Sequence record: MH791413.1
Reading direction: 5' to 3' (one strand)
DNA length: 64,000 bases
Source of the DNA: Escherichia phage EcSzw_1
The notes under the pieces: model-generated
Told to the model about the DNA's origin: nothing
Database searches by the model: none
The model's input: only the letters and a program-made list of their open reading frames with translations
Position numbers and translations under genes: made by a program
Shown: piece after piece, positions 3,454-40,086 of the stretch
How positions within the stretch are numbered: position 1 is the first letter of the stretch
Layout of the letters: each line of letters opens with the position of its first letter

Positions 3454-3858
3454 TTAAAGTTCTGCGTAAATTGCATCACAGATATCACGAAAATCATAGC
3501 TTGTCAAGTTACGTTGTAACCATGTTGCGAAAAAATCAGCTATTGCAAAATTTGCATCATACTCAACAGATAACCACACTTTTACAGCAAATCGAAACAT
3601 TTTCAAGTCAAGTTCTTTATTCATTACTTTTGATTTGCCTAACATGTCAACCATTTCATATTGTGCGCCGTCAAGTGTAACACCTGATGCAACATTTGCA
3701 AGTGAATTTTTTACGCTTTCAACGTCTAAGATTGCACCTTGAATCTTTCCGATAATGTTATGCAGTGTTTCGTCTGGTGCTGCTGATGTAATTACGTTGA
3801 TGCGATTAACGGTCAAACGTGCTTTCAGGATTGCAGTGTCACGAGTATTCATAGCCAT
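3454..3858 (-). CDS. Hypothetical early protein (134 aa)
   Basis: ORF in track; ATG at 3856-3858 followed by cassette. Confidence 0.5.
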   Translation of the reverse strand: MAMNTRDTAILKARLTVNRINVITSAAPDETLHNIIGKIQGAILDVESVKNSLANVASGVTLDGAQYEMVDMLGKSKVMNKELDLKMFRFAVKVWLSVEYDANFAIADFFATWLQRNLTSYDFRDICDAIYAEL

Positions 3859-3945
3859 TTTTAAATCTCCAGTTTAGGGGTTATCGATAAAATCTCTTTA
3901 TCTGGGGCTATACTAGCAAACTTTATAACCCCATGTAANAGACTA
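3859..3945 (-). promoter_or_regulatory. Early promoter/leader cassette copy 6
   Basis: TTTTAAATCTCCAGTTTAGGGGTTATCGATAAAATCTCTTTATCTGGGGCTATACTAGCAAACTTTATAACCCCATGTAA; N at 3939. Confidence 0.45.
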
Positions 3946-4210
3946 AATACAACTTTTTCCCGTTAACAATGATGTAACTTACACCGCTATTGCTGTAAAC
4001 ATCTTGATAGATTCTGCGTAACTTGCCTGAATAGCGCACTTTCCAAGATGTAGGAATCTTTTTACCGTATCCGGTGGATGTTTTTTGTAAACCTGCTAAT
4101 TGCCAATCTAAAATGTGTTGTTCTGCTGTTAACTCTTCAAAGTTTAATACGCCGTCTACATAGTGCTTTAAAGTAACGTTTAAGGTGTGACCATTATTTG
4201 TAGTATACAT
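3923..4210 (-). CDS. Hypothetical small early protein (95 aa)
   Basis: ORF in track; 3' end overlaps cassette and contains N at 3939. Confidence 0.4.
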   Translation of the reverse strand: MYTTNNGHTLNVTLKHYVDGVLNFEELTAEQHILDWQLAGLQKTSTGYGKKIPTSWKVRYSGKLRRIYQDVYSNSGVSYIIVNGKKLYLVXYMGL

Positions 4211-4302
4211 TTTGAATCTCCAGTTTAGGAAGTGGGCTTGCTTGCCCGTCTGATAAGTAATTTACTTGTTTCCGTTACCAGTTGCAAGCCCTTTTTAGAA
4301 AT
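4211..4302 (-). promoter_or_regulatory. Early promoter/leader cassette copy 7 (B-type)
   Basis: TTTGAATCTCCAGTTTAGGAAGTGGGCTTGCTTGCCCGTCTGATAAGTAATTTA plus GTTGCAAGCCCTTTTTAG element shared with copy 2. Confidence 0.4.
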
Positions 4303-4626
4303 TTATTTCCGTTTGCTTATCTCGTGAACAATAACAGCGTGATAATCTTTCAAATTACTAATATTTAAAGCATTTAGTAAAGCATTATAATCATCAACTA
4401 ACTGAAAATCACCGCTTAGAATGTCACTAACCTGATATGTGTTAGCCTTGAATCTGAAGCCCATCTCTAAACGCTTTAATTGTTCTACGTTTAAACGCTC
4501 TAGAAAGGACGTCACAAGGTTATTATTGATTTGCCTTGTGATTGCATCACTTGCCGCCTGATGCGCTTTATAGGCTTTATACAGTGCTAAAATAGCAATA
4601 AATAAGGCAACTCCAGAAATTAGCAT
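4303..4626 (-). CDS. Hypothetical membrane protein (107 aa)
   Basis: N-terminal hydrophobic helix MLISGVALFIAILALY; start overlaps end of upstream gene. Confidence 0.5.
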   Translation of the reverse strand: MLISGVALFIAILALYKAYKAHQAASDAITRQINNNLVTSFLERLNVEQLKRLEMGFRFKANTYQVSDILSGDFQLVDDYNALLNALNISNLKDYHAVIVHEISKRK

Positions 4627-4916
4627 GATGATTTACCTTTATGAAATAGTTTACCAGTGTGACTAATCTCAAAAGAATCTATCATATCTTTTGTTGATTT
4701 AACAGAACTTTTATTTGCATTGTCATAGATATCTACCTGAAGCAATGGCTTTTTGTATTCTTTACAAAAGTTCCAAATACAGACAACAACTTCTTTACCA
4801 TTGATTTTTCCGTGATACCATTCTGTTACTTCATGAGTACGGCGCATAGATTCTACAAATTTGATATCTTGTAAAAGTTTGCTCAACTTGGAACGTACAT
4901 TTGCAGCAATAAACAT
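4620..4916 (-). CDS. Hypothetical early protein (98 aa)
   Basis: ORF in track; ATG at 4914-4916 followed by cassette. Confidence 0.5.
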   Translation of the reverse strand: MFIAANVRSKLSKLLQDIKFVESMRRTHEVTEWYHGKINGKEVVVCIWNFCKEYKKPLLQVDIYDNANKSSVKSTKDMIDSFEISHTGKLFHKGKSSC

Positions 4917-5006
4917 TTTAGAATCTCCAGTTTAGGATTGATTTGGTAAATCTCTTTATCTGGGGCTATNCTTATCAACCTGATAACCCCATGTAAAGCA
5001 ATTTAT
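4917..5006 (-). promoter_or_regulatory. Early promoter/leader cassette copy 8
   Basis: TTTAGAATCTCCAGTTTAGGATTGATTTGGTAAATCTCTTTATCTGGGGCTAT(N)CTTATCAACCTGATAACCCCATGTAAAGCAAT. Confidence 0.45.
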
Positions 5007-5519
5007 TTAGATATCAAAAATATTCATCATTAAATCTTTCAAGGCTTCTAAACGTTCCATGACTTCAGATTCTGCGTCTGCGTTGCTTACTTCCTCTTTT
5101 AGTCTATCCTCTAAATCGTCGCCGTCGCTATAGCACCAATCAAAGGCATATCCAAGATAAAAACTATCTAAAACCGTGTTTCCGTTTGCAGCTACAACTT
5201 TTGCAGATAGGCTATATTCTGAAGCCTCTAAATCCCTTTCTAGTTCTTTCTGTAAGCTGATGTAAGCCTCTCGTGATGGATTTTCCCGGCCTTGTTTTGC
5301 ATAGTCGCTAGAAAGCTGTTTAAGGCTATAGCGTAAAGGGATTGCATATTCAAATTCATTACGTTGATAGTTAGGATTCTTAATAGTTACCCCGCCTTGA
5401 TGGTTGTTTGTAAATTCCCAATCACTGATGTTATGGCTTGCTTCATAGCAGTTAACAGCTTCATATATGATAGAGAATTTCTCTTTTACAACTTCAAAGG
5501 TAGCGTCTACAGTTTTCAT
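5007..5519 (-). CDS. Hypothetical early protein (170 aa)
   Basis: ORF in track; ATG at 5517-5519 followed by cassette. Confidence 0.55.
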   Translation of the reverse strand: MKTVDATFEVVKEKFSIIYEAVNCYEASHNISDWEFTNNHQGGVTIKNPNYQRNEFEYAIPLRYSLKQLSSDYAKQGRENPSREAYISLQKELERDLEASEYSLSAKVVAANGNTVLDSFYLGYAFDWCYSDGDDLEDRLKEEVSNADAESEVMERLEALKDLMMNIFDI

Positions 5520-5604
5520 TTTGAATCTCCAGTTTAGGATTGATTGTAAAGCTCTTTATCTGGGGCTTATATTAGCAACTCATAAACCCCATGTAAAGCA
5601 CTTT
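5520..5604 (-). promoter_or_regulatory. Early promoter/leader cassette copy 9
   Basis: Minus strand -35 TTTACA, 17 nt, -10 TAATAT, SD GGAG; plus-strand TTGAATCTCCAGTTTAGGATTGATTGTAAAGCTCTTTATCTGGGGCTTATATTAGCAACTCATAAACCCCATGTAAAGCAC. Confidence 0.5.
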
Positions 5605-5862
5605 TTAGATTAAATTTGCAGTTAATGCCAAGTGCATTTTATAACCTTGTATAGTGTAAACATTGGTTTTACCAATAGTCTTTACACCTTTGAAAAGGTT
5701 GTAAGAGTTATGCTTTAAGTTTAATTGCTTGTCACACTTTACGCCCCATCTTACAGCAGAATCTTTCCCGTTGTCAATCACTTTTCCGTCTAAATCTTTT
5801 GCCAGTAAACGAGCGTTATCACGAGTTTTTGCATTAACTACTACGTTTTTGATGATAGCCAT
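5605..5862 (-). CDS. Hypothetical small early protein (85 aa)
   Basis: ORF in track; ATG at 5860-5862 followed by cassette. Confidence 0.5.
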   Translation of the reverse strand: MAIIKNVVVNAKTRDNARLLAKDLDGKVIDNGKDSAVRWGVKCDKQLNLKHNSYNLFKGVKTIGKTNVYTIQGYKMHLALTANLI

Positions 5863-5951
5863 TTTTGAATCTCCAGTTTAGGGGTTATTGATAAAATCTC
5901 TTTATCTGGGGCTTATACTATCGAACTATAAACCCCCTGTAAAGCACTTTA
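5863..5951 (-). promoter_or_regulatory. Early promoter/leader cassette copy 10
   Basis: Near-identical to copy 1 (GGGGCTTATACTATCGAACTATAAACCCCCTGTAAAGCAC); -35 TTTACA, 17 nt, -10 TAGTAT on the minus strand. Confidence 0.5.
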
Positions 5952-6332
5952 TTAGCTAATTTTAAAGATAGTCACATAGCCATCACTACCAATCATCTGA
6001 GAAACACCAGCTTTCTCGACATTGTAACCCATTTTATCAAGATGGTAAATTGCATCTTCATAGCCGTAGGCATCACCTTGATAACGTCTCTTCTCACATT
6101 TTATCAAGGTTTTACCACGTCCAGCAAGTGCATTAATGATAGCTTTATCACCTGATAAACTACCATCTAACATAGTTGCGCGATAATGGTTTATTTTGTT
6201 GCCATTTACATCATACTTAAAATTATATGCGTGAACAACAATTATTTTACCTTTGAATTTTTCATCAAGTGTTTTCTCCAGTACATCGCGGAAGTTTTCT
6301 TTATTGATGAATTTAGGCGCACGATATTTCAT
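5952..6332 (-). CDS. Hypothetical early protein (126 aa)
   Basis: ORF in track; ATG at 6330-6332 followed by cassette. Confidence 0.55.
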   Translation of the reverse strand: MKYRAPKFINKENFRDVLEKTLDEKFKGKIIVVHAYNFKYDVNGNKINHYRATMLDGSLSGDKAIINALAGRGKTLIKCEKRRYQGDAYGYEDAIYHLDKMGYNVEKAGVSQMIGSDGYVTIFKIS

Positions 6333-6415
6333 TTTGAATCTCCAGTTTAGGATTGATTATAAAGCTCTTTATCTGGGGCTTATGGTATCAAGCTTTTAAG
6401 CCCCTTGTANGCAAT
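6333..6415 (-). promoter_or_regulatory. Early promoter/leader cassette copy 11
   Basis: Near-identical to copy 3 (…GGGGCTTATGGTATCAAGCTTTTAAGCCCCTTGTA); N at 6410. Confidence 0.45.
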
Positions 6416-6579: not shown

Positions 6580-6786
6580 TTAAACGTCATAATAGTAAAT
6601 TGCAGTATGTCTAATATGCTTTCTTGTGTGAGTTGTCAAGTAACAATCTGAATTAATTGACGTGTTTACATATGTATCATAATCTTTCTCTGATATACGT
6701 TGCCACACATCACAAATTAGCATATAAAAGCGACGATGTTTAGTCTCAGTATTATCTACAATCATTAACTCACGTTGATATAACAT
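6580..6786 (-). CDS. Hypothetical small early protein (68 aa; start moved to ATG at 6784-6786)
   Basis: Track ORF starts at a TTG at 6834 inside the cassette. The ATG at 6784-6786 sits at the same distance from the TCTCCAGTTTAGG leader as in all other copies. Confidence 0.5.
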   Translation of the reverse strand: MLYQRELMIVDNTETKHRRFYMLICDVWQRISEKDYDTYVNTSINSDCYLTTHTRKHIRHTAIYYYDV

Positions 6787-6870
6787 TTTGAATCTCCAGT
6801 TTAGGAAGTGGTCTTGTTTGCCCGTCTGATGCAAATACTAAATAACTTTGTTTTGCAGGTCAAGCAAATT
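6787..6870 (-). promoter_or_regulatory. Early promoter/leader cassette copy 12 (B-type)
   Basis: TTTGAATCTCCAGTTTAGGAAGTGGTCTTGTTTGCCCGTCTGATGCAAAT. Confidence 0.4.
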
Positions 6871-6983
6871 TTTAAAAATATTTTCAGGAATTGCCAGAGA
6901 TGAACGGGCGCACGACTACCACAAAACATAGCACAAATCAAGAATTATTTTTCAGTTCTCTACAGATTTTTCTCTTGACTTTT

Positions 6984-7019
6984 GGGGAGAGGGGGAGTAA
7001 GAGGGGGAGAGGGGCAGGG
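6984..7019. repeat. G-tract cluster (GGGG, GGGGG, GGGGG, GGGG, GGG), potential G-quadruplex; C-rich on the transcribed minus strand
   Basis: TTTGGGGAGAGGGGGAGTAAGAGGGGGAGAGGGGCAGGGC read directly; compositionally unusual against the AT-rich surroundings. Confidence 0.5.
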
Positions 7020-7036
7020 CTGGCACTATCTACCTA

Positions 7037-7219
7037 CCTGCACAATTCTAAAATGATTTTTCTTGCCCGACACTCGCCGGGTCTGCACGTTTTGAAAATG
7101 AAAAATCTCTTTGGAGTCCACCTGCACAAATTGAAAATGAATTTTCCCTTTGGAGTTCAAAATTTTCTCTACAGATTTCTGTCCAGACTTTTACCTGCAC
7201 AATTTTAAAATGAAAAAGC
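7037..7219. repeat. Four direct repeats of a ~26 bp unit CCTGCACAAWTTNAAAATGAWWWWNC (starts 7037, 7082, 7121, 7194) plus two copies each of CTCTACAGATTT (6959, 7167) and CTTTGGAGTYCA (7108, 7148)
   Basis: Read directly from sequence; the only ORF across it (6891..7208 +) translates repeats and the G-tract. Confidence 0.55.
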
Positions 7220-7286
7220 CCTCCTTACCTGAAAATTTTACCAGATAAGAAAGGCTTAGTCTATTGTGAATATGCTACAGAGTTTC

Positions 7287-8069
7287 TTAGTTCTTTGCAG
7301 CTAAGAACTTGATGTTAGAAATGTCTACAATTGCTTCAGCATCTTTCTCATTTGCTGCAAGAATGTACACATCAGGTTCACTTCCAAATGTCACTGCACG
7401 TTGCATACTACCTTTCAACGGCGGGGTAACTTGAGCGTTACTTAGAGACATTCTCTCAACCGGAGGGTTACTCTGATGTACCTTGTTCTTACGATGCCTG
7501 AAGAGGATAACTCCGTCTTCGTTGACAACGGCTACCCCTGCAAAGTATTGTGGTTCACTGTGATTACCCCATGTTGACAGAGTACTAAACATTGCCTCTT
7601 CAAATACGTAAAGGTAAACATCAACATCTTTCAAGATGTGATTCATAATTACCACAACAGCTTTCGGGTCAAGTCCACCAATACCTGCACCAATCATTGG
7701 GAGACCAACTTTCTTCAGTTGATTCACTTTGCAGTACTGGCTAAGACTCAACAAAGCACTCTCAAGAGCATTGTAACGAGCATCTTTACCAGTCTTCAAC
7801 TGAGTGTATAGGTTAGCAATACGGCCTTGTTTAAGACGTGATACAGAGAGTTTACCAAGCAGTTTCTGACAAGGTTTATGCTCTCTTCCTCCTGCTACAC
7901 GGTAGACTTCGGCATCAGTTTCATAGGCTTTTGGGTAACCTTTAGAAATCTTGTAAGCAATACCTGCACCCATCAGGTTCATACAGTTGCAACCGTGACC
8001 AATGATATCAAACTTACCTTTTTCAAAGTCTGCGAAGATATCACCTTTGATGACTTTTACAATACCCAT
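7287..8069 (-). CDS. Macrodomain protein (ADP-ribose binding or hydrolase; TARG1/DarG-like signature) with uncharacterised C-terminal extension
   Basis: N-terminal VIKGDIFADF…DIIGHGCNCMNLMGAGIAYKI matches the GDxF … H-x-C … MGAGIA pattern of TARG1/OARD1-type macrodomains (from memory); about 110 aa C-terminal region unassigned. Confidence 0.65.
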   Translation of the reverse strand: MGIVKVIKGDIFADFEKGKFDIIGHGCNCMNLMGAGIAYKISKGYPKAYETDAEVYRVAGGREHKPCQKLLGKLSVSRLKQGRIANLYTQLKTGKDARYNALESALLSLSQYCKVNQLKKVGLPMIGAGIGGLDPKAVVVIMNHILKDVDVYLYVFEEAMFSTLSTWGNHSEPQYFAGVAVVNEDGVILFRHRKNKVHQSNPPVERMSLSNAQVTPPLKGSMQRAVTFGSEPDVYILAANEKDAEAIVDISNIKFLAAKN

Positions 8070-8070
8070 C

Positions 8071-8271
8071 TTACCATTTCTCCCATGATTCTTTATCTTC
8101 AGAAGGTTTTACACGTTGACCTTCATGGTCTACCCAGATTCCACCACAACCTTCACAGAGTGTTGGCATAGCATAGCCAGCTTTGAACTCTTCTTCAGAG
8201 ATAAGACCTCTCAAGTCTCCTGTATCACGTCCAAACAGTTCGATGGAACAATCTTTGCAGAAATCAGCCAT
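8071..8271 (-). CDS. Small zinc-ribbon protein (66 aa)
   Basis: CKDC … CEGCGG cysteine pairs; ATG at 8269-8271. Confidence 0.45.
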   Translation of the reverse strand: MADFCKDCSIELFGRDTGDLRGLISEEEFKAGYAMPTLCEGCGGIWVDHEGQRVKPSEDKESWEKW

Positions 8272-10256: not shown

Positions 10257-10952
10257 TTAGTGTTTGATAAGCATTGTGTTAATTTCTGGAAGGATTCGTT
10301 TAACCTTCTCAACATTCCTTACTGTATCTTCTATAAAACATACTACATCATAGTACGGAAGAATGCAAGACTGAATCATACGAACTTTCAAACTTTCTGC
10401 ACTGATTCTATTTGAACCAAAACCACGCATAAAAAGCATGTAGTCAGTCACGATATGCTTGTCAATAAACAAATGGGTTGGTACACGTTGAGACTCACCA
10501 CGAGCAGTTAAAACACCGATTGCAGCACTTTTATGGATGCCTGAAATGATATTAAAGATGTACGTAGGTTGTGCATCAACTGACTCAATCAAGTTTGTAT
10601 ACTGTGACAGAGTGCCATCTTCCAGATATGTTGAGTTTGTTGGCTTATCAAACTTAGTGAGAACACCATCAATATCTGTTAAAACCATTGGCTTCTTCAT
10701 ATCAAGGTCTTTTGCAACCAAGATTAAGCTGTCACGTTTAACGGCTACTGACTTACCTGTTTGAAGGTCTGTACAGAGAACTGTTTCAGCAGATGAATGA
10801 AAGTCTTTGAAGTCACATTCAACAGCCCTTGCAGTATCTGCAAAGTCTTCTTTCATAAGGTCTGTCCAGCTTGCAGCACTGATATCTATAGCCAGAGGGT
10901 TGATATCGTAAGCGTGACAAAATACCTTATCCAATTGTTTTAATTCGCTCAT
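10257..10952 (-). CDS. HAD-superfamily hydrolase (putative nucleotidase or phosphatase)
   Basis: HAD motif I LTDIDGVLT; track start is a TTG at 10994; ATG at 10950-10952 with upstream AAGG chosen. Confidence 0.55.
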   Translation of the reverse strand: MSELKQLDKVFCHAYDINPLAIDISAASWTDLMKEDFADTARAVECDFKDFHSSAETVLCTDLQTGKSVAVKRDSLILVAKDLDMKKPMVLTDIDGVLTKFDKPTNSTYLEDGTLSQYTNLIESVDAQPTYIFNIISGIHKSAAIGVLTARGESQRVPTHLFIDKHIVTDYMLFMRGFGSNRISAESLKVRMIQSCILPYYDVVCFIEDTVRNVEKVKRILPEINTMLIKH

Positions 10953-11478
10953 GTTTAACCTTTTTGATGTTTGTTGCAAACTCACATTGAGCAAGCACCT
11001 TCATGTTATTGTACACATCTTGAGAGTATTGTCTAGCTTTCGGAATACGGTATGAATAACCTGCATTGTATGAAGCTAAGACACGCTGTAAAGAGTATTT
11101 CCCATTAGGATTACCATGAACCTTAGTCCAGAACTGAAGCTCTTTGTGTGTCTCCTTTGCAGCATAATCGAAGTCTCTGATAAGTTTCTTCTTAGCTACG
11201 TTTGGGTTAACTTTGTTACGCTTTACAACAGTCTTCAAGTGATTCTGGAACAAACCATAATCGTGAGTCTTTTTATTTTCAAGACGAAGACCTAACTCTG
11301 ACTCTTGTAAGGCTATAGCGGCTAAGGTTAATCCCCAACCTTTACCCATCTCTTTCTCACCGTAGTGATAAGCTTTAAGCATGTTTGTTTTCTGACTGAT
11401 GGATAACTCTGGACAGTCTGAAGCGACTGCCAAATGTGCTGTTAAGAATAAGCACAAACCTAAAATGAACTTCTTCAT
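10927..11478 (-). CDS. Lytic transglycosylase (SLT domain) with Sec signal peptide
   Basis: Signal peptide MKKFILGLCLFLTAHLAVA; SLT motifs QESELG, YGLFQ, SYNAGYS. Confidence 0.6.
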   Translation of the reverse strand: MKKFILGLCLFLTAHLAVASDCPELSISQKTNMLKAYHYGEKEMGKGWGLTLAAIALQESELGLRLENKKTHDYGLFQNHLKTVVKRNKVNPNVAKKKLIRDFDYAAKETHKELQFWTKVHGNPNGKYSLQRVLASYNAGYSYRIPKARQYSQDVYNNMKVLAQCEFATNIKKVKHERIKTIG

Positions 11479-11535
11479 TGGTTCTCCTGTTTAGTTCAAC
11501 ATACAAGCAATTATACACTACTCTGCACAAAACAC

Positions 11536-11565
11536 AAATAAAAAAGGCTGCCGAAGCAGCCCTTT
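11536..11565 (-). terminator. Rho-independent terminator downstream of rIIB
   Basis: GGCTGC-CGAA-GCAGCC at 11546-11561 with A-tract 11536-11545 on the plus strand (U-tract on minus). Confidence 0.6.
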
Positions 11566-37129: not shown

Positions 37130-37386
37130 AATGCCCTCTTTTAAGTACCTATTAAACTTAATCTGTTTTCTTTACGTATTCTATACGTATAACTTTAAAG
37201 CTTCTTAAAAGCTATTAAAAATCTTTTAAGGGTTTTAAAGAAACTGTATAGTTAATCTGTAAAGGGAGTCTTTTAAGTTAAAACCCACTTCGCAAAGATT
37301 AACACCTTGTCAAGTGAATTGTCAACTTGCTTTTTGAAACTTTTTGCAGTAATGTATTGAGTCAATGATTTTGAGAGGGAGTAAAA
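37130..37386. promoter_or_regulatory. Divergent AT-rich control region between minus-strand block and DNA polymerase gene
   Basis: Tandem palindromes TTACGTAT (37162-37169) and TATACGTATA (37172-37181); three CTTTTAAG motifs; TTGTCAA direct repeat; SD GAGGGAG before ATG 37387. Confidence 0.5.
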
Positions 37387-40086
37387 ATGGAAAACGTAGA
37401 TTTTGAAAACTTGCACTTGGTAGGTGATACCGAAACTGATGGGTTACTCCTTGAGTTCACAAAAGCACACGTAATGGCATTTGCAGATTACAAAGATGAC
37501 AGTGACGAACCTGCTGTGTGGGTCTTCACCGATGAACCTATTCTTGGTCACAAATGCACTAAGTATATTAAAGGTGGTCTTCGTGAAGGTGTAGAGTTTG
37601 CTCTTAAGGCAAAGCGTCTCTGCATTCATAACGGTCTTGGCTATGACTGGTGGGTGTTCAATCACATTGCACCGGACTTATGGAACTTTGACAATCCAAA
37701 GTGTAAACCTTGGGGAGACTTCTTTCAGGATTCTCTTATCCAGTCTCGTGTTCAGTGGATGGATAGACCTACACCGAAAGGTTATAAAGGTGCTCATGGT
37801 TTGGCTGCGTGGGGTGCTCGTGTTGGTGTTCGTAAACCAGAGATTGAAGAATGGGGTGTTTGGAATGCTGATATTCTGAACCGTGTTGTTGAGGATATTC
37901 GAATCAACGCCAAAACTAAACGTGCTCTTGATAACGAATACCTGAAGTTGAAGAAGTGTGGTGTAGATACTTACGAAACCTACATGCGAGCTAAAGAAAC
38001 ATCTTTCTGGATGAGTCAGCAAGCTATCAACGGTTGGAAAGCTGATATTGAACTTATGCAGTTCCATGTCAAAGAACTTGACAGAATGACTGATGAGTTA
38101 GCTGCTGAAGTTGAGCCTCATCTGCCACCGACTATCAAGACGAAAGGTAAAGTCACTGGTGAAGAGTTTGCAAAAGCTTGGAACGAGTATGTTGAGACAT
38201 TTGGTAAAGCAGATGGTCTGAAGCGCATCACTAAGTATCCAAAAACTAAGTTCCGTCAGCAGGTTCGTAATGGTGAGATGCAGACTTACGCTATCAAACC
38301 TTTTGGTAAACCAACTACCAAGATTTTCAACATTGAGAAGCGTAACTGCTACACTCCAACTAACACGGTTACTGGAGAAGAGTACAAAGAAGGCTTCGTG
38401 GCAATGAAAGATGCTCGTGCAGTTTGTAACAAGTTGAATGCTGCGATTGATAAGAAGTGCAAAGACTGGAAACCAGTTAAGACCGTGAAGACTGTGAAGT
38501 ACTACAATAATCACGTAGTAAATCACTTTGAACTTGAGTCAAGTCGTTACACAGGTTTGATTGATGCACCTTATACACCAATTGAGTTCGAAGTTTCACG
38601 CATGACTCAGGTTGCGGTTGTGAAGGATTATCTGAAAACTCTTGGCTGGATTCCTGATGACTGGAACTACAAGAAAGATTCTGATGGTCGTCCGGTGAAG
38701 GTTTGTCGCTTCAAAGATAACAAGAAGATGATTCGTAAACATCCGAAATGGCAAGAGATGGTAGACCGTTGCGGATTGAATTACGTTGAGCATGAAGGTG
38801 TACAGTACATCGAACACAACTGGTCTGTGAAGAAGTACACAGATTTGCTTGAACCTTGCTTGATTCGTACTTCACCGAAACTGACTGAATCTTCTTACGA
38901 TACGATTGAAGGTGAACTTGGACAGAAGATTGCGAAGTACTATACTTTGATGCACCGACGCAGAACTATCGAGAACTCAAAGGATGATGAAAAGGGTTGG
39001 TTAAACCAGATTCGTCCAGATGGTCGTTTGAGTGCTGGTGCAATGGTGTTTGGTACTTCAACTGGACGTATGACACAATACGGAATTGTGAACGTACCTT
39101 CTGGGGCTGCTGTTTACGGTGAACCAATGAGGGCAGTCTGGATTTGTGAAGAAGGAGCCAACGTAGTCTCCGTTGATATGAACTCTGCACAGCTTGTTCT
39201 ACTGTGTAACTTTATGGGTGATAAAGAGTTCACAAAAGCGGTAACTCAGGGTAAAGAAGAGATTGAGTTTATCCGTCAGGAAGATGGCAGATACTACTGC
39301 AAACACTTTGACGAATACCTGAATCCAGAAGTTGATAAGTATCTGCGTTATGACTCTGAAAACGACTTGTACGTAGTTTACTCAGGTACTGATGCGCATA
39401 CACTGAACAGTATCTACTTCAGCTTGAACGAAGAACAAGATATCCTGACTTGTCGTATGACTCAGGATGAGAATCTTCTTCACGAAATCAGTAAAGGCCG
39501 TAAGAAAGCTAAGAACGGTATCTATGCGTTACTGTTCGGTGCTGGCGATGAGAAGTTTGCTAAGACGATTAAAGCTGCGACTACTCAGGAAGGTGCATTG
39601 ACTAAACAGACTTACTTTGTTCGCTTGCCGAAGATTAAGAAACTGTTAGATGACTTGGAAGCTGACTTTAAAGCGACTAAGAAAGCACTTGAAGAGGTGT
39701 TTGGTAAGACTGCTGCAATTGCTAAAGGTGGTTTTGTCAAGGTTGCTGGAGCATGGTTGTGGTGTAAGTCTCCACACAAACTGTTGAACTACTTGCTGAT
39801 GGGTTCAGAAGCACAAGTTCAGAATGAAGCAATCAACCTTGCATGTCGTCGTATGATTGATGAAGGTTTGATGAAGTTGAATGGTCGTAAGCCAGCTATC
39901 GGTGCTCGTTTACTTTGTGCATATCACGATGAAACAAGTTGGGAATGTCCAGAGAGCATGACAGCAGAAGTTAAGGCTGTAACTGACTGGTACTACGGAC
40001 AAGCTTCTAAGAACTTAGGGCTTCGTAAAGAAACTCTGGTAACAGGGACTGGTAAAGTTGGTAAGTCTTGGTTGGAAGTTCACTAA
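37387..40086 (+). CDS. DNA polymerase, family A, with 3'-5' exonuclease domain
   Basis: Exo I GDTETDGL; motif A-like VSVDMNSAQL; motif B-like KKAKNGIYALLFGAG; motif C AYHDET; 899 aa. Confidence 0.8.
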   Translation: MENVDFENLHLVGDTETDGLLLEFTKAHVMAFADYKDDSDEPAVWVFTDEPILGHKCTKYIKGGLREGVEFALKAKRLCIHNGLGYDWWVFNHIAPDLWNFDNPKCKPWGDFFQDSLIQSRVQWMDRPTPKGYKGAHGLAAWGARVGVRKPEIEEWGVWNADILNRVVEDIRINAKTKRALDNEYLKLKKCGVDTYETYMRAKETSFWMSQQAINGWKADIELMQFHVKELDRMTDELAAEVEPHLPPTIKTKGKVTGEEFAKAWNEYVETFGKADGLKRITKYPKTKFRQQVRNGEMQTYAIKPFGKPTTKIFNIEKRNCYTPTNTVTGEEYKEGFVAMKDARAVCNKLNAAIDKKCKDWKPVKTVKTVKYYNNHVVNHFELESSRYTGLIDAPYTPIEFEVSRMTQVAVVKDYLKTLGWIPDDWNYKKDSDGRPVKVCRFKDNKKMIRKHPKWQEMVDRCGLNYVEHEGVQYIEHNWSVKKYTDLLEPCLIRTSPKLTESSYDTIEGELGQKIAKYYTLMHRRRTIENSKDDEKGWLNQIRPDGRLSAGAMVFGTSTGRMTQYGIVNVPSGAAVYGEPMRAVWICEEGANVVSVDMNSAQLVLLCNFMGDKEFTKAVTQGKEEIEFIRQEDGRYYCKHFDEYLNPEVDKYLRYDSENDLYVVYSGTDAHTLNSIYFSLNEEQDILTCRMTQDENLLHEISKGRKKAKNGIYALLFGAGDEKFAKTIKAATTQEGALTKQTYFVRLPKIKKLLDDLEADFKATKKALEEVFGKTAAIAKGGFVKVAGAWLWCKSPHKLLNYLLMGSEAQVQNEAINLACRRMIDEGLMKLNGRKPAIGARLLCAYHDETSWECPESMTAEVKAVTDWYYGQASKNLGLRKETLVTGTGKVGKSWLEVH

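Follow-up and report, generated by a model that had tools for sequence, protein, structure and literature searches.

The stretch of DNA analysed here, 64,000 nucleotides (nt) of Escherichia phage EcSzw_1 (sequence record MH791413.1; hereafter the window), contains a non-coding region of approximately 450 bases that lies between the terminator of an operon closing with a macrodomain gene and the first promoter of an array of small early genes, and that carries an array of co-oriented direct repeats next to a G-rich tract. The 1.8 kb around the repeat region show 99.4% identity to Escherichia phage EcSzw-2 (Suspvirus) and match 243 records of Felix O1-type (Ounavirinae) phages; as judged by sequence similarity, the window is a Suspvirus-like Ounavirinae phage genome, and whole-genome checks were performed on the near-identical genome of EcSzw-2 (86.7 kb). 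In the EcSzw-2 annotation, every gene from approximately 37.7 kb to the genome end is located on the minus strand, and the order of transcription is replication and nucleotide-metabolism genes, rIIA, rIIB, a short operon that closes with the macrodomain gene, the repeat region, and approximately 6 kb of small genes. A preliminary description of this region, made from the letters of the window, had correctly placed the repeats between the macrodomain gene and the first small early gene, and the repeats do head the early-gene array, being located just upstream of a good sigma-70 promoter. The strong intrinsic terminator after the macrodomain gene, which is listed in the Felix O1 paper (PMC3185647) as t13 and is annotated as a terminator in the record of phage wV8 as well, closes a 30-kb co-directional transcription unit that extends from the rII genes to the macrodomain gene. 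Downstream of the array, the TTGAC and the -10 element of the early promoter are kept in all genera, Kolesnikvirus included, and the gene at the first position of the early array varies among relatives, with three alternatives found.

The repeat array consists of four copies of a bipartite motif, all in the same orientation (minus strand TTTTCATTTT-N6-GTGCAGGT), plus a decayed fifth copy; on the sense strand, the site comprises approximately 20 bp and reads TTCATTTT, six bases, and then GTGCA(GGT). The four 26-bp repeats that had been described as starting at 7037, 7082, 7121, and 7194 were all recovered at these positions, as was every other element of that description; further duplicated words beside them include a 28-nt block, which sits after copy 4 and again after the C-tract segment (i.e., the G-rich tract as read on the sense strand), and CTTTGGAGT, which is found at 7109-7117 and at 7148-7156. 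Because the 28-nt block is duplicated, copy 4 with its spacer and copy 1 with its spacer are paralogous super-units. The first half of copy 4 is the T-tail of the macrodomain-operon terminator, and some 180 bp separate the end of the repeat array from the first early promoter. When the window was searched with a degenerate 20-nt pattern, allowing for three or fewer mismatches, 6 matches were found versus 0.61 expected, and none of 100 shuffled sequences reached 6; four of these six matches make up the cluster, which is the single one both in the 64-kb window and in the full 86.7-kb EcSzw-2 genome. The uniqueness of the cluster speaks for a cis-acting array of binding sites, as a general promoter or terminator element would be expected to recur. 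One further motif-like site is located outside the region, downstream of rIIB, where TTTTATTTGTGTTTTGTGCAGAG overlaps the -35 element and the spacer of a promoter with a perfect TATAAT; this junction is conserved in Felixounavirus, Suspvirus, and Mooglevirus. Both this sixth site and copy 4 begin on a terminator T-tail, and other terminators with the same tail do not carry the GTGCA block.

Conservation was assessed in 27 distinct locus sequences, obtained from annotated phage records and IMG/VR and representing Felixounavirus, Suspvirus, Mooglevirus, and Kolesnikvirus. Nearly all of these sequences have four co-oriented copies, with three copies in two Si3-type sequences (L013 and L034), and the spacing between repeats is fixed for a given lineage at 73/39/45, 75/41/45, or 37/37/39 bp; metagenomic Ounavirinae contigs show the same arrangement. 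A motif logo consists of two near-invariant blocks, TTCATTT(T) and GTGCA, which are six bases apart and enclose a variable middle. Diversity, expressed as mean pairwise differences per site among 21 genomes, was 0.085 for the motif cores and 0.171 for the spacers between them, as compared to 0.110, 0.138, and 0.284 for codon positions 2, 1, and 3, respectively, of the macrodomain gene; the conserved block at 6900-6983 showed the same value (0.138) as codon position 1 of this gene. Copy number and spacing persist out to Kolesnikvirus, in which the flanking non-coding DNA no longer aligns. Judging by these substitution patterns, the repeats are under strong purifying selection, and the comparison of repeat number among relatives that the preliminary description had proposed came out in favor of a retained array. 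The core variant of Kolesnikvirus is GTGCATAG, and the junction downstream of rIIB is not present in this genus. Pattern scans of IMG/VR, JGI metagenomes, and GTDB genomes for carriers beyond the Ounavirinae yielded Ounavirinae-sized contigs and a few unrelated tandem repeats, and on the evidence of these scans the repeat cluster is restricted to the Ounavirinae. Among the unrelated matches, an Ignavibacteria metagenome-assembled genome contig (CAVVVP010000010.1; L041, 6580-6700) has five tandem 32-bp units of GGGGTCAATCGGCTCATTTTCCATTTGTGCAA, a chance match to the pattern that is unrelated to the phage element. Mimicry of host DNA was also considered and rejected, as no similarity to the repeat region was found in 5,426 E. 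coli genomes.

The G-rich tract next to the repeats is as outstanding as had been described: this 36-nt stretch with five G-runs (GGGGAGAGGGGGAGTAAGAGGGGGAGAGGGGCAGGG) lies in the 45-nt stretch that exceeds all others of the 64 kb in both G and purine content and, with all genes here on the minus strand, corresponds to a C-tract on the transcribed strand. The G-quadruplex (G4) pattern of at least four runs of at least three G with loops of 1-7 nt is fitted by 6984-7014 and by 6991-7019; such patterns occur twice in the window, versus 0.085 expected per shuffled 64 kb, and twice in the whole 86.7-kb EcSzw-2 genome. The tract has a G4Hunter score of 2.33 and is the strongest G4 candidate of the window, and G4-aware folding, which is a prediction only, gives a four-tetrad quadruplex as the minimum-energy structure (-25.0 versus -7.2 kcal/mol with DNA parameters; -28.5 versus -18.0 kcal/mol with RNA parameters). 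In addition, 6984-7014 forms a perfect 14+14 homopurine mirror repeat (GGGGAGAGGGGGAG-TAA-GAGGGGGAGAGGGG), which had not been noted in that description; as both arms exceed the minimum of 10 nt and the spacer between them is short, this is a classical H-DNA motif, and the mirror is also perfect in several relatives that carry the same allele of the tract (allele A). The tract is a genuine and very strong candidate for non-B DNA, as both G4 and H-DNA. The second G4-pattern sequence of the genome (419-452) consists of three tandem GGGCTTTAnA units within the terminal repeat.

By contrast to the repeats, the G-tract occupies the most variable part of the region, a 52-nt slot with 0.396 differences per site. 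In copy 4, GTGCAGGT runs straight into AAAAGTC, and in copy 1 the same two words are separated by 52 nt; because the paralogous junction lacks these 52 nt, the G/C-tract segment appears, by this comparison, to have been inserted into one of the spacers of an older array with five sites. Subtraction of the G-tract (36 nt) or of the whole 52-nt insert reduces the distance between copy 1 and the decayed fifth copy to approximately 57-73 bp. G4 potential in the slot was found in 13 of the 27 distinct relatives, and 11 carry an unrelated sequence without G4 potential (allele B), in which case the motif of the fifth copy is not retained either. Allele B is present in 140 of 291 related phage records, at least 36 records carry the G-tract allele of the Felix O1 type, and the slot of Kolesnikvirus contains just a short C-rich stretch. 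The retention of G4 potential among relatives that would mark a conserved functional G4 element was therefore not observed (13/27), and since approximately half of the relatives carry another sequence in the slot, the G-tract can at most modulate the element. Thus, of the "iterons plus structured element" that had been proposed for this locus, the iteron-like part (i.e., four to five co-oriented copies of approximately 20-26 bp) stands, while the repeats do not have a conserved partner in the G-tract.

Table 1. Features in and around the repeat region (positions in the window)
Feature	Position	Strand	Remarks
Macrodomain gene	7287-8069	minus	Pfam Macro
Intrinsic terminator of macrodomain operon (t13 of Felix O1)	7216-7257	minus	Terminator scan; 17-pair stem; T-tail 7206-7215
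Repeat copy 4 (first in transcription direction)	7194-7219	minus	Core TTTCATTTTAAAATTGTGCA at 7196-7215, then GGT; in 27/27 distinct relatives
28-nt block, second copy	7165-7192	minus	86% identity to 6956-6983
Repeat copy 3	7121-7146	minus	Core 7123-7142; 73 bp from copy 4; absent from Si3-type L013 and L034
Repeat copy 2	7082-7107	minus	Core 7084-7103; 39 bp from copy 3
Small CCCG...CGGG hairpin after copy 2	7064-7079		Read from sequence; loop differs among relatives
Repeat copy 1	7037-7062	minus	Core 7039-7058; 45 bp from copy 2
Variable 52-nt insert slot	6984-7035	none	Between GTGCAGGT of copy 1 and AAAAGTC; G-tract allele here
G-tract	6984-7019	plus	GGGGAGAGGGGGAGTAAGAGGGGGAGAGGGGCAGGG, five G-runs; C-tract on sense strand
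28-nt block, first copy	6956-6983	minus	Invariant plus-strand TTGACT at 6975-6980; in all Felixounavirus, Suspvirus, and Mooglevirus sequences
Rest of conserved non-coding block between insert slot and promoter	6900-6955	none	Part of 6900-6983 (0.138 differences per site)
Decayed fifth repeat copy	6927-6953	minus	70% identity; 109 bp from copy 1
Early promoter of first array gene	6835-6890	minus	Promoter scan; AT-rich upstream element; -35 TTGACC (6863-6858); 17-nt spacer; -10 TAGTAT (6840-6835)
First small gene of early array (MLYQRELM...)	6580-6786	minus	Carries the array's conserved leader CCTAAACTGGAGATTCAAAATG
Sixth motif-like site, outside the repeat region	11505-11563	minus	t2 hairpin downstream of rIIB, then TTTTATTTGTGTTTTGTGCAGAG

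The reading we favor, with a tentative probability of roughly 0.4, is that the repeats represent a cis-acting array of putative protein-binding sites that would serve as an operator, roadblock, or insulator where the rII-macrodomain operon adjoins the hypervariable early array. Protein binding, the nature of the binder, and the regulatory outcome are what we infer; an array of protein sites is favored because of the uniqueness, co-orientation, fixed bipartite core, and conservation above non-synonymous positions of the repeats as well as the lack of a coding or RNA-structure signal in the region, and a role as operator, roadblock, or insulator is favored because the array spans from the terminator to approximately 180 bp before the first promoter and because a related copy is found on another promoter. 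Two invariant blocks, 6 nt apart and with a variable middle, are as expected for a protein that would contact two adjacent grooves. In the proposed mechanism, a sequence-specific DNA-binding protein, encoded by either the phage or the host, would occupy the four (originally five) co-oriented bipartite sites and give rise, where the operon meets the early array, to an operator complex or a polar nucleoprotein block. This complex might serve as a roadblock or insulator that halts polymerases that have passed the terminator before they reach the early promoters or, alternatively, might turn down the adjacent promoter or promoters as infection advances; the sixth site suggests that such down-regulation could also apply to the promoter downstream of rIIB. 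The G-tract would be an accessory, lineage-variable insert in one spacer, which the conserved function does not need; where present, it may act as a further obstacle in the form of non-B DNA (G4 or H-DNA) or, on the sense RNA, offer a C-rich site at which Rho is loaded. The "switch region" and the "transcription-blocking" readings raised in the preliminary description are both compatible with the data and may apply.

Multi-operator regions of temperate phages and protein roadblocks downstream of terminators provide precedents for arrays of this type. As in these systems, one site occurs several times close to both a promoter and a terminator, with a related copy overlapping the core of a second promoter; unlike in these systems, the sites described here are asymmetric and in one orientation rather than palindromic, and the nearest promoter is 180-390 bp away. 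To our knowledge, the virulent phage studied here has no known repressor, unlike temperate phages with operator systems. As judged from its layout, the array is best filed with the familiar class of protein-docking repeat arrays in phage control regions.

A number of observations weigh against this interpretation. No binder was found, and no consensus of a known E. coli factor fits the motif (as judged from a scan in the case of DnaA and by eye only in the case of IHF, Fis, CRP, MarA/SoxS, and NtrC). A distance of 180-390 bp separates the array from the promoter that it would control, other promoters of the early array do not have the motif, and the copies are not spaced by full helical turns. 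In its first half, the motif resembles the phage's usual terminator T-tail, so part of the similarity among the copies could be transcriptional in origin, and three copies suffice in Si3-type genomes. In favor of the interpretation, by contrast, Felix O1 "gene 14" (8042-8254 in that phage), which spans copies 3 to 1 and the C-tract, was reported as positive by reverse transcription-PCR (RT-PCR) with a maximum at 25 min, while the flanking genes 13 and 16 peak at 5 min and gene 3, which is downstream of the sixth copy, peaks at 25 min (PMC3185647); these RT-PCR data, which are neither strand-specific nor more than semi-quantitative, show just that the region is present in RNA with an apparent timing unlike that of its neighbors.

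Possible binders near the array were also considered. The macrodomain protein has a C-terminal extension of approximately 100 residues, which we examined as a possible binding domain; by sequence, neither a Pfam family nor a relative of solved structure was found for these C-terminal 100 residues. Positions 8071-8271, directly upstream of the macrodomain gene, encode a 66-residue protein with two CxxC pairs, which is zinc-ribbon-like and conserved in Felix O1, and which, from its sequence, is a possible nucleic-acid binder.

Several types of promoter elements were tried as an identity of the repeats and rejected. A scan for tandem sigma-70 promoters gave just the early promoter and one site in the terminator loop; no -10 element at promoter distance was seen by eye in the repeat units of any genus; and sigma-54 and sigma-E patterns, also judged by eye, were inconsistent across the copies. 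A genome-wide "middle promoter" box, defined as TGTGCAG followed by TAnnnT, was found once versus 1.4 expected; GTGCAGG is enriched mainly owing to the repeat cluster itself, and combinations of GTGCAG with a -10 element are not enriched across the genome. The promoter-like site within the terminator hairpin after the macrodomain gene (7235-7263, minus strand) reads TAGACT, 17 nt, and TAAAAT preceded by TG, and is unconserved beyond Felixounavirus and Suspvirus SUSP2-type genomes.

One alternative, which the preliminary description had also raised and which we consider unlikely, is that the region is a replication origin, in which the repeats would be iterons bound by an initiator, the adjacent strong promoter would activate or prime replication, and the G-rich non-template strand, where present, would stabilize an R-loop. 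Iteron arrays are well known from the lambda origin, with its four O-protein sites, from P1 oriR, and from T4 oriE, and, in common with these origins, the array has four to five co-oriented direct repeats of approximately 20 bp (within the range of 17-22 bp for such repeats) at a unique, non-coding and conserved locus next to a strong promoter and AT-rich stretches, with strong conservation of the sites themselves. However, the copies are irregularly spaced at 37-75 bp, as compared to approximately 22 bp, or about two helical turns, in iteron origins. A motif scan of the repeat region found no DnaA boxes (TTWTNCACA) and no Chi sites, and the single KOPS match, at 7012, is as expected in a G-tract. 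No initiator-like gene is adjacent, and the gene downstream varies among relatives; the least stable stretch found here reaches no more than the top 1-5% of the window, whose minimum is at approximately 37,150, and thus is not an outstanding AT-rich unwinding element. With regard to the G-tract, R-loop or G4 formation would be favored if the plus strand were transcribed, and the invariant plus-strand TTGACT is located just upstream; G-rich elements of this type act at primer-forming sites such as ColE1 RNA II and mitochondrial CSB II, and H-DNA mirror repeats are likewise well known. The tract shares with these elements G-runs of very high G4 propensity and a perfect homopurine mirror, but here the sense transcript contains the C-tract, any promoter in the G-rich direction is at most a putative one, and approximately half of the relatives have another sequence in place of the tract. 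The reading as an origin is consequently weakened, with the co-oriented direct repeats speaking for it and the lack of DnaA boxes, the irregular spacing, and the lack of an exceptional unwinding element speaking against it. Elsewhere in the window, the intergenic region from which the primase/helicase operon and the DNA polymerase gene diverge (37130-37388) contains the least stable 100 bp of the 64 kb and carries about five copies of CTTTTAAG/CTTAAAAG; from these sequence features, it would be a better candidate for a replication origin or control region than the repeat array.

A function at the RNA level, which we regard as unlikely too, would involve a non-coding transcript across the repeats, in sense or antisense, that would either titrate an RNA-binding protein like a sponge or regulate the 3' end of the macrodomain operon by antisense action. 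Such a transcript would agree with the RT-PCR data, in which RNA of middle timing was detected for the repeats and the C-tract, with the invariance in three genera of the plus-strand -35 TTGACT, followed after 17 nt by TAAGAG (allele A) or TAGCCT (allele B), and with the presence of several copies of one motif on one RNA, which is a hallmark of protein-titrating RNAs. Nevertheless, the RT-PCR signal could be mere read-through of t13, which is also the sole terminator that could bound a discrete RNA, and the candidate -10 elements are weak and failed the promoter scan. Structural analyses gave no support either: the best Rfam hit scored 19 bits versus a gathering threshold of 41, neither a consensus fold nor covariation was found among the relatives, and the repeat region folds like shuffled sequences, with z-scores of -0.18 and +0.25.

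It is rather improbable that the region is a fail-safe termination zone that works independently of a bound protein, with U-rich tracts pausing read-through polymerases and C-rich, G-poor RNA loading Rho, such that the early promoters would be spared from occlusion. The array does begin on a terminator T-tail, each unit has a TTTTTCATTTT tract like the tails of the phage's terminators, and the excess of C over G on the sense strand reaches 0.269 over 78 nt near 7019, which is in the top 0.1% of the window. Across relatives, however, this C-rich, G-poor stretch of approximately 80 nt is found in allele-A genomes (0.24-0.27), whereas allele-B genomes, with a maximum of 0.10, have no such C-rich bubble; copies 3 to 1 have no usable hairpins; and a termination zone of this kind would leave the invariant GTGCA block and its fixed distance from the T-tract unexplained.

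We find it very improbable that the repeats are neutral leftovers, i.e., decayed terminator/promoter junctions that remained after recombination removed genes between cassettes of the early array. Early regions of T4-type phages contain PeSLs, which are stem-loop terminators fused to early promoters (PMC2839356, PMC4122927), and the neighboring early array is built from similar cassettes, with a stem-loop, an early promoter, and a conserved leader around small, variable open reading frames (ORFs); copy 4 together with t13 is similar, and also resembles the junction of t2 and a promoter downstream of rIIB, and the duplicated 28-nt block represents a larger internal duplication in the region. 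Copies 3 to 1 differ from PeSLs in that they lack both a stem-loop and a -10 element, do not flank any genes, and are confined to this locus. Moreover, the cores are more conserved than the non-synonymous positions of the adjacent gene, and both copy number and spacing are kept out to Kolesnikvirus in spite of flanks that cannot be aligned; the sequence conservation data thus largely refute an origin of the array as leftovers.

The location of the array relative to the genome end is relevant to yet another interpretation. A 581-bp direct terminal repeat of phage Pr103Blw has been mapped with PhageTerm (PMC8303462) and is annotated in its record; because this repeat aligns to positions 1-567, the window starts at a physical genome end. 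The mapped repeat also rules out a terminal repeat or packaging site as the identity of the region at 6.8-7.3 kb. The terminal repeat itself (1-567) holds more than 25 short repeats of the TTAACA(A/G) type, which plausibly are terminase recognition sites. Since the window starts at the terminal repeat, the early array occupies the terminal ~7 kb, or approximately 8% of a genome of ~87 kb, and it is conceivable, but extremely doubtful, that the region is a polar checkpoint for DNA entry, at which a protein on the co-oriented repeats would hold the rest of the genome back until early functions release it, the terminal ~7 kb with its hypervariable host-takeover genes having entered and been expressed first. 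By analogy with phage T5 and its injection stop, a conserved untranslated repeat region bounds a terminal block (~8%) of poorly conserved small early ORFs, with the repeat-rich region better conserved than the adjacent small ORFs (bioRxiv 10.1101/866236). However, the T5 region lies in a 10-kb terminal repeat and contains DnaA boxes in pairs as well as palindromes and large inverted repeats, none of which are seen here; a checkpoint in the present phage would be made of other parts, and the terminal repeat of the present phage is only ~570 bp in length and located 6.5 kb away from the array. Moreover, the array is transcribed towards the end, its distance to the end differs among relatives, and there is no reported two-step transfer in these phages. 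If an entry checkpoint were true, it would represent two-step genome delivery in a Felix O1-type myovirus with just a 0.6-kb terminal repeat.

Lastly, a small protein gene, such as the plus-strand ORF at 6891-7208 that is annotated in EcSzw-2 and Mordin or the minus-strand ORFs annotated in wV8 and Felix O1, can be dismissed: open frames of 50-110 codons exist on both strands, a weak PHROGs hit over 20 residues was found, and Felix O1 "gene 14" was RT-PCR positive, but substitutions in 17 genomes are distributed over the three phases as 15/16/18 (i.e., without three-base periodicity), the frames do not stay intact or in register from one genus to the next, spacings of 73, 41, and 37 cannot be divided by three, neither a start codon nor a ribosome-binding site is found consistently, and Pfam gave no hit.

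Turning back to the repeats as an array of protein sites, the element appears to be previously undescribed. Our literature search found no paper on the repeat region and none on a mapped origin or on transcription start sites for these phages, and no report of the repeat-containing intergenic region was found for the Bas63 knockout screen. The repeat array is also missing from the Felix O1 genome paper, which does list the terminator and other repeats and states that the timing of transcription of the phage is not known (PMC3185647). Of the non-coding sequences found near the early region, the repeat locus is under the strongest constraint; it is common to every genus of the subfamily that was examined and provides a concrete handle on a possible new DNA-binding regulator, insulator, or origin function; in addition, the alleles of the slot (a G4/H-DNA tract versus an unrelated sequence) represent a natural experiment on whether non-B DNA matters for phage regulation. 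Phages of the Felix O1 type have a classical role in typing and biocontrol, and for phage engineering the locus represents a boundary to leave undisturbed when early-gene cassettes are swapped.

Some further observations concern the window and the early array itself. The window holds 13 scattered ambiguous bases (e.g., near 568, 4185, 4960, and 6390), which lead to X residues in several ORF translations. The early array (3800-6400; e.g., 5520-5608, 5863-5955, and 4917-5010, all on the minus strand) is built from cassettes, and its gene content varies among relatives; a cassette consists of a TTTACA-N17-TAATAT promoter, overlapped by a GGGG...CCCC stem and followed by the invariant leader CCTAAACTGGAGATTCAAAATG, so that each small gene of the array has its own promoter and conserved leader. 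All of these leaders have GGAG in the ribosome-binding site, and GGAG is the target of the endoribonuclease RegB in T4. The gene downstream of rIIB (10927-11478) is annotated in phage Mordin as similar to RegB of T4, and by analogy the combination of a RegB-like gene with GGAG leaders suggests that early mRNAs may be shut off by cleavage.

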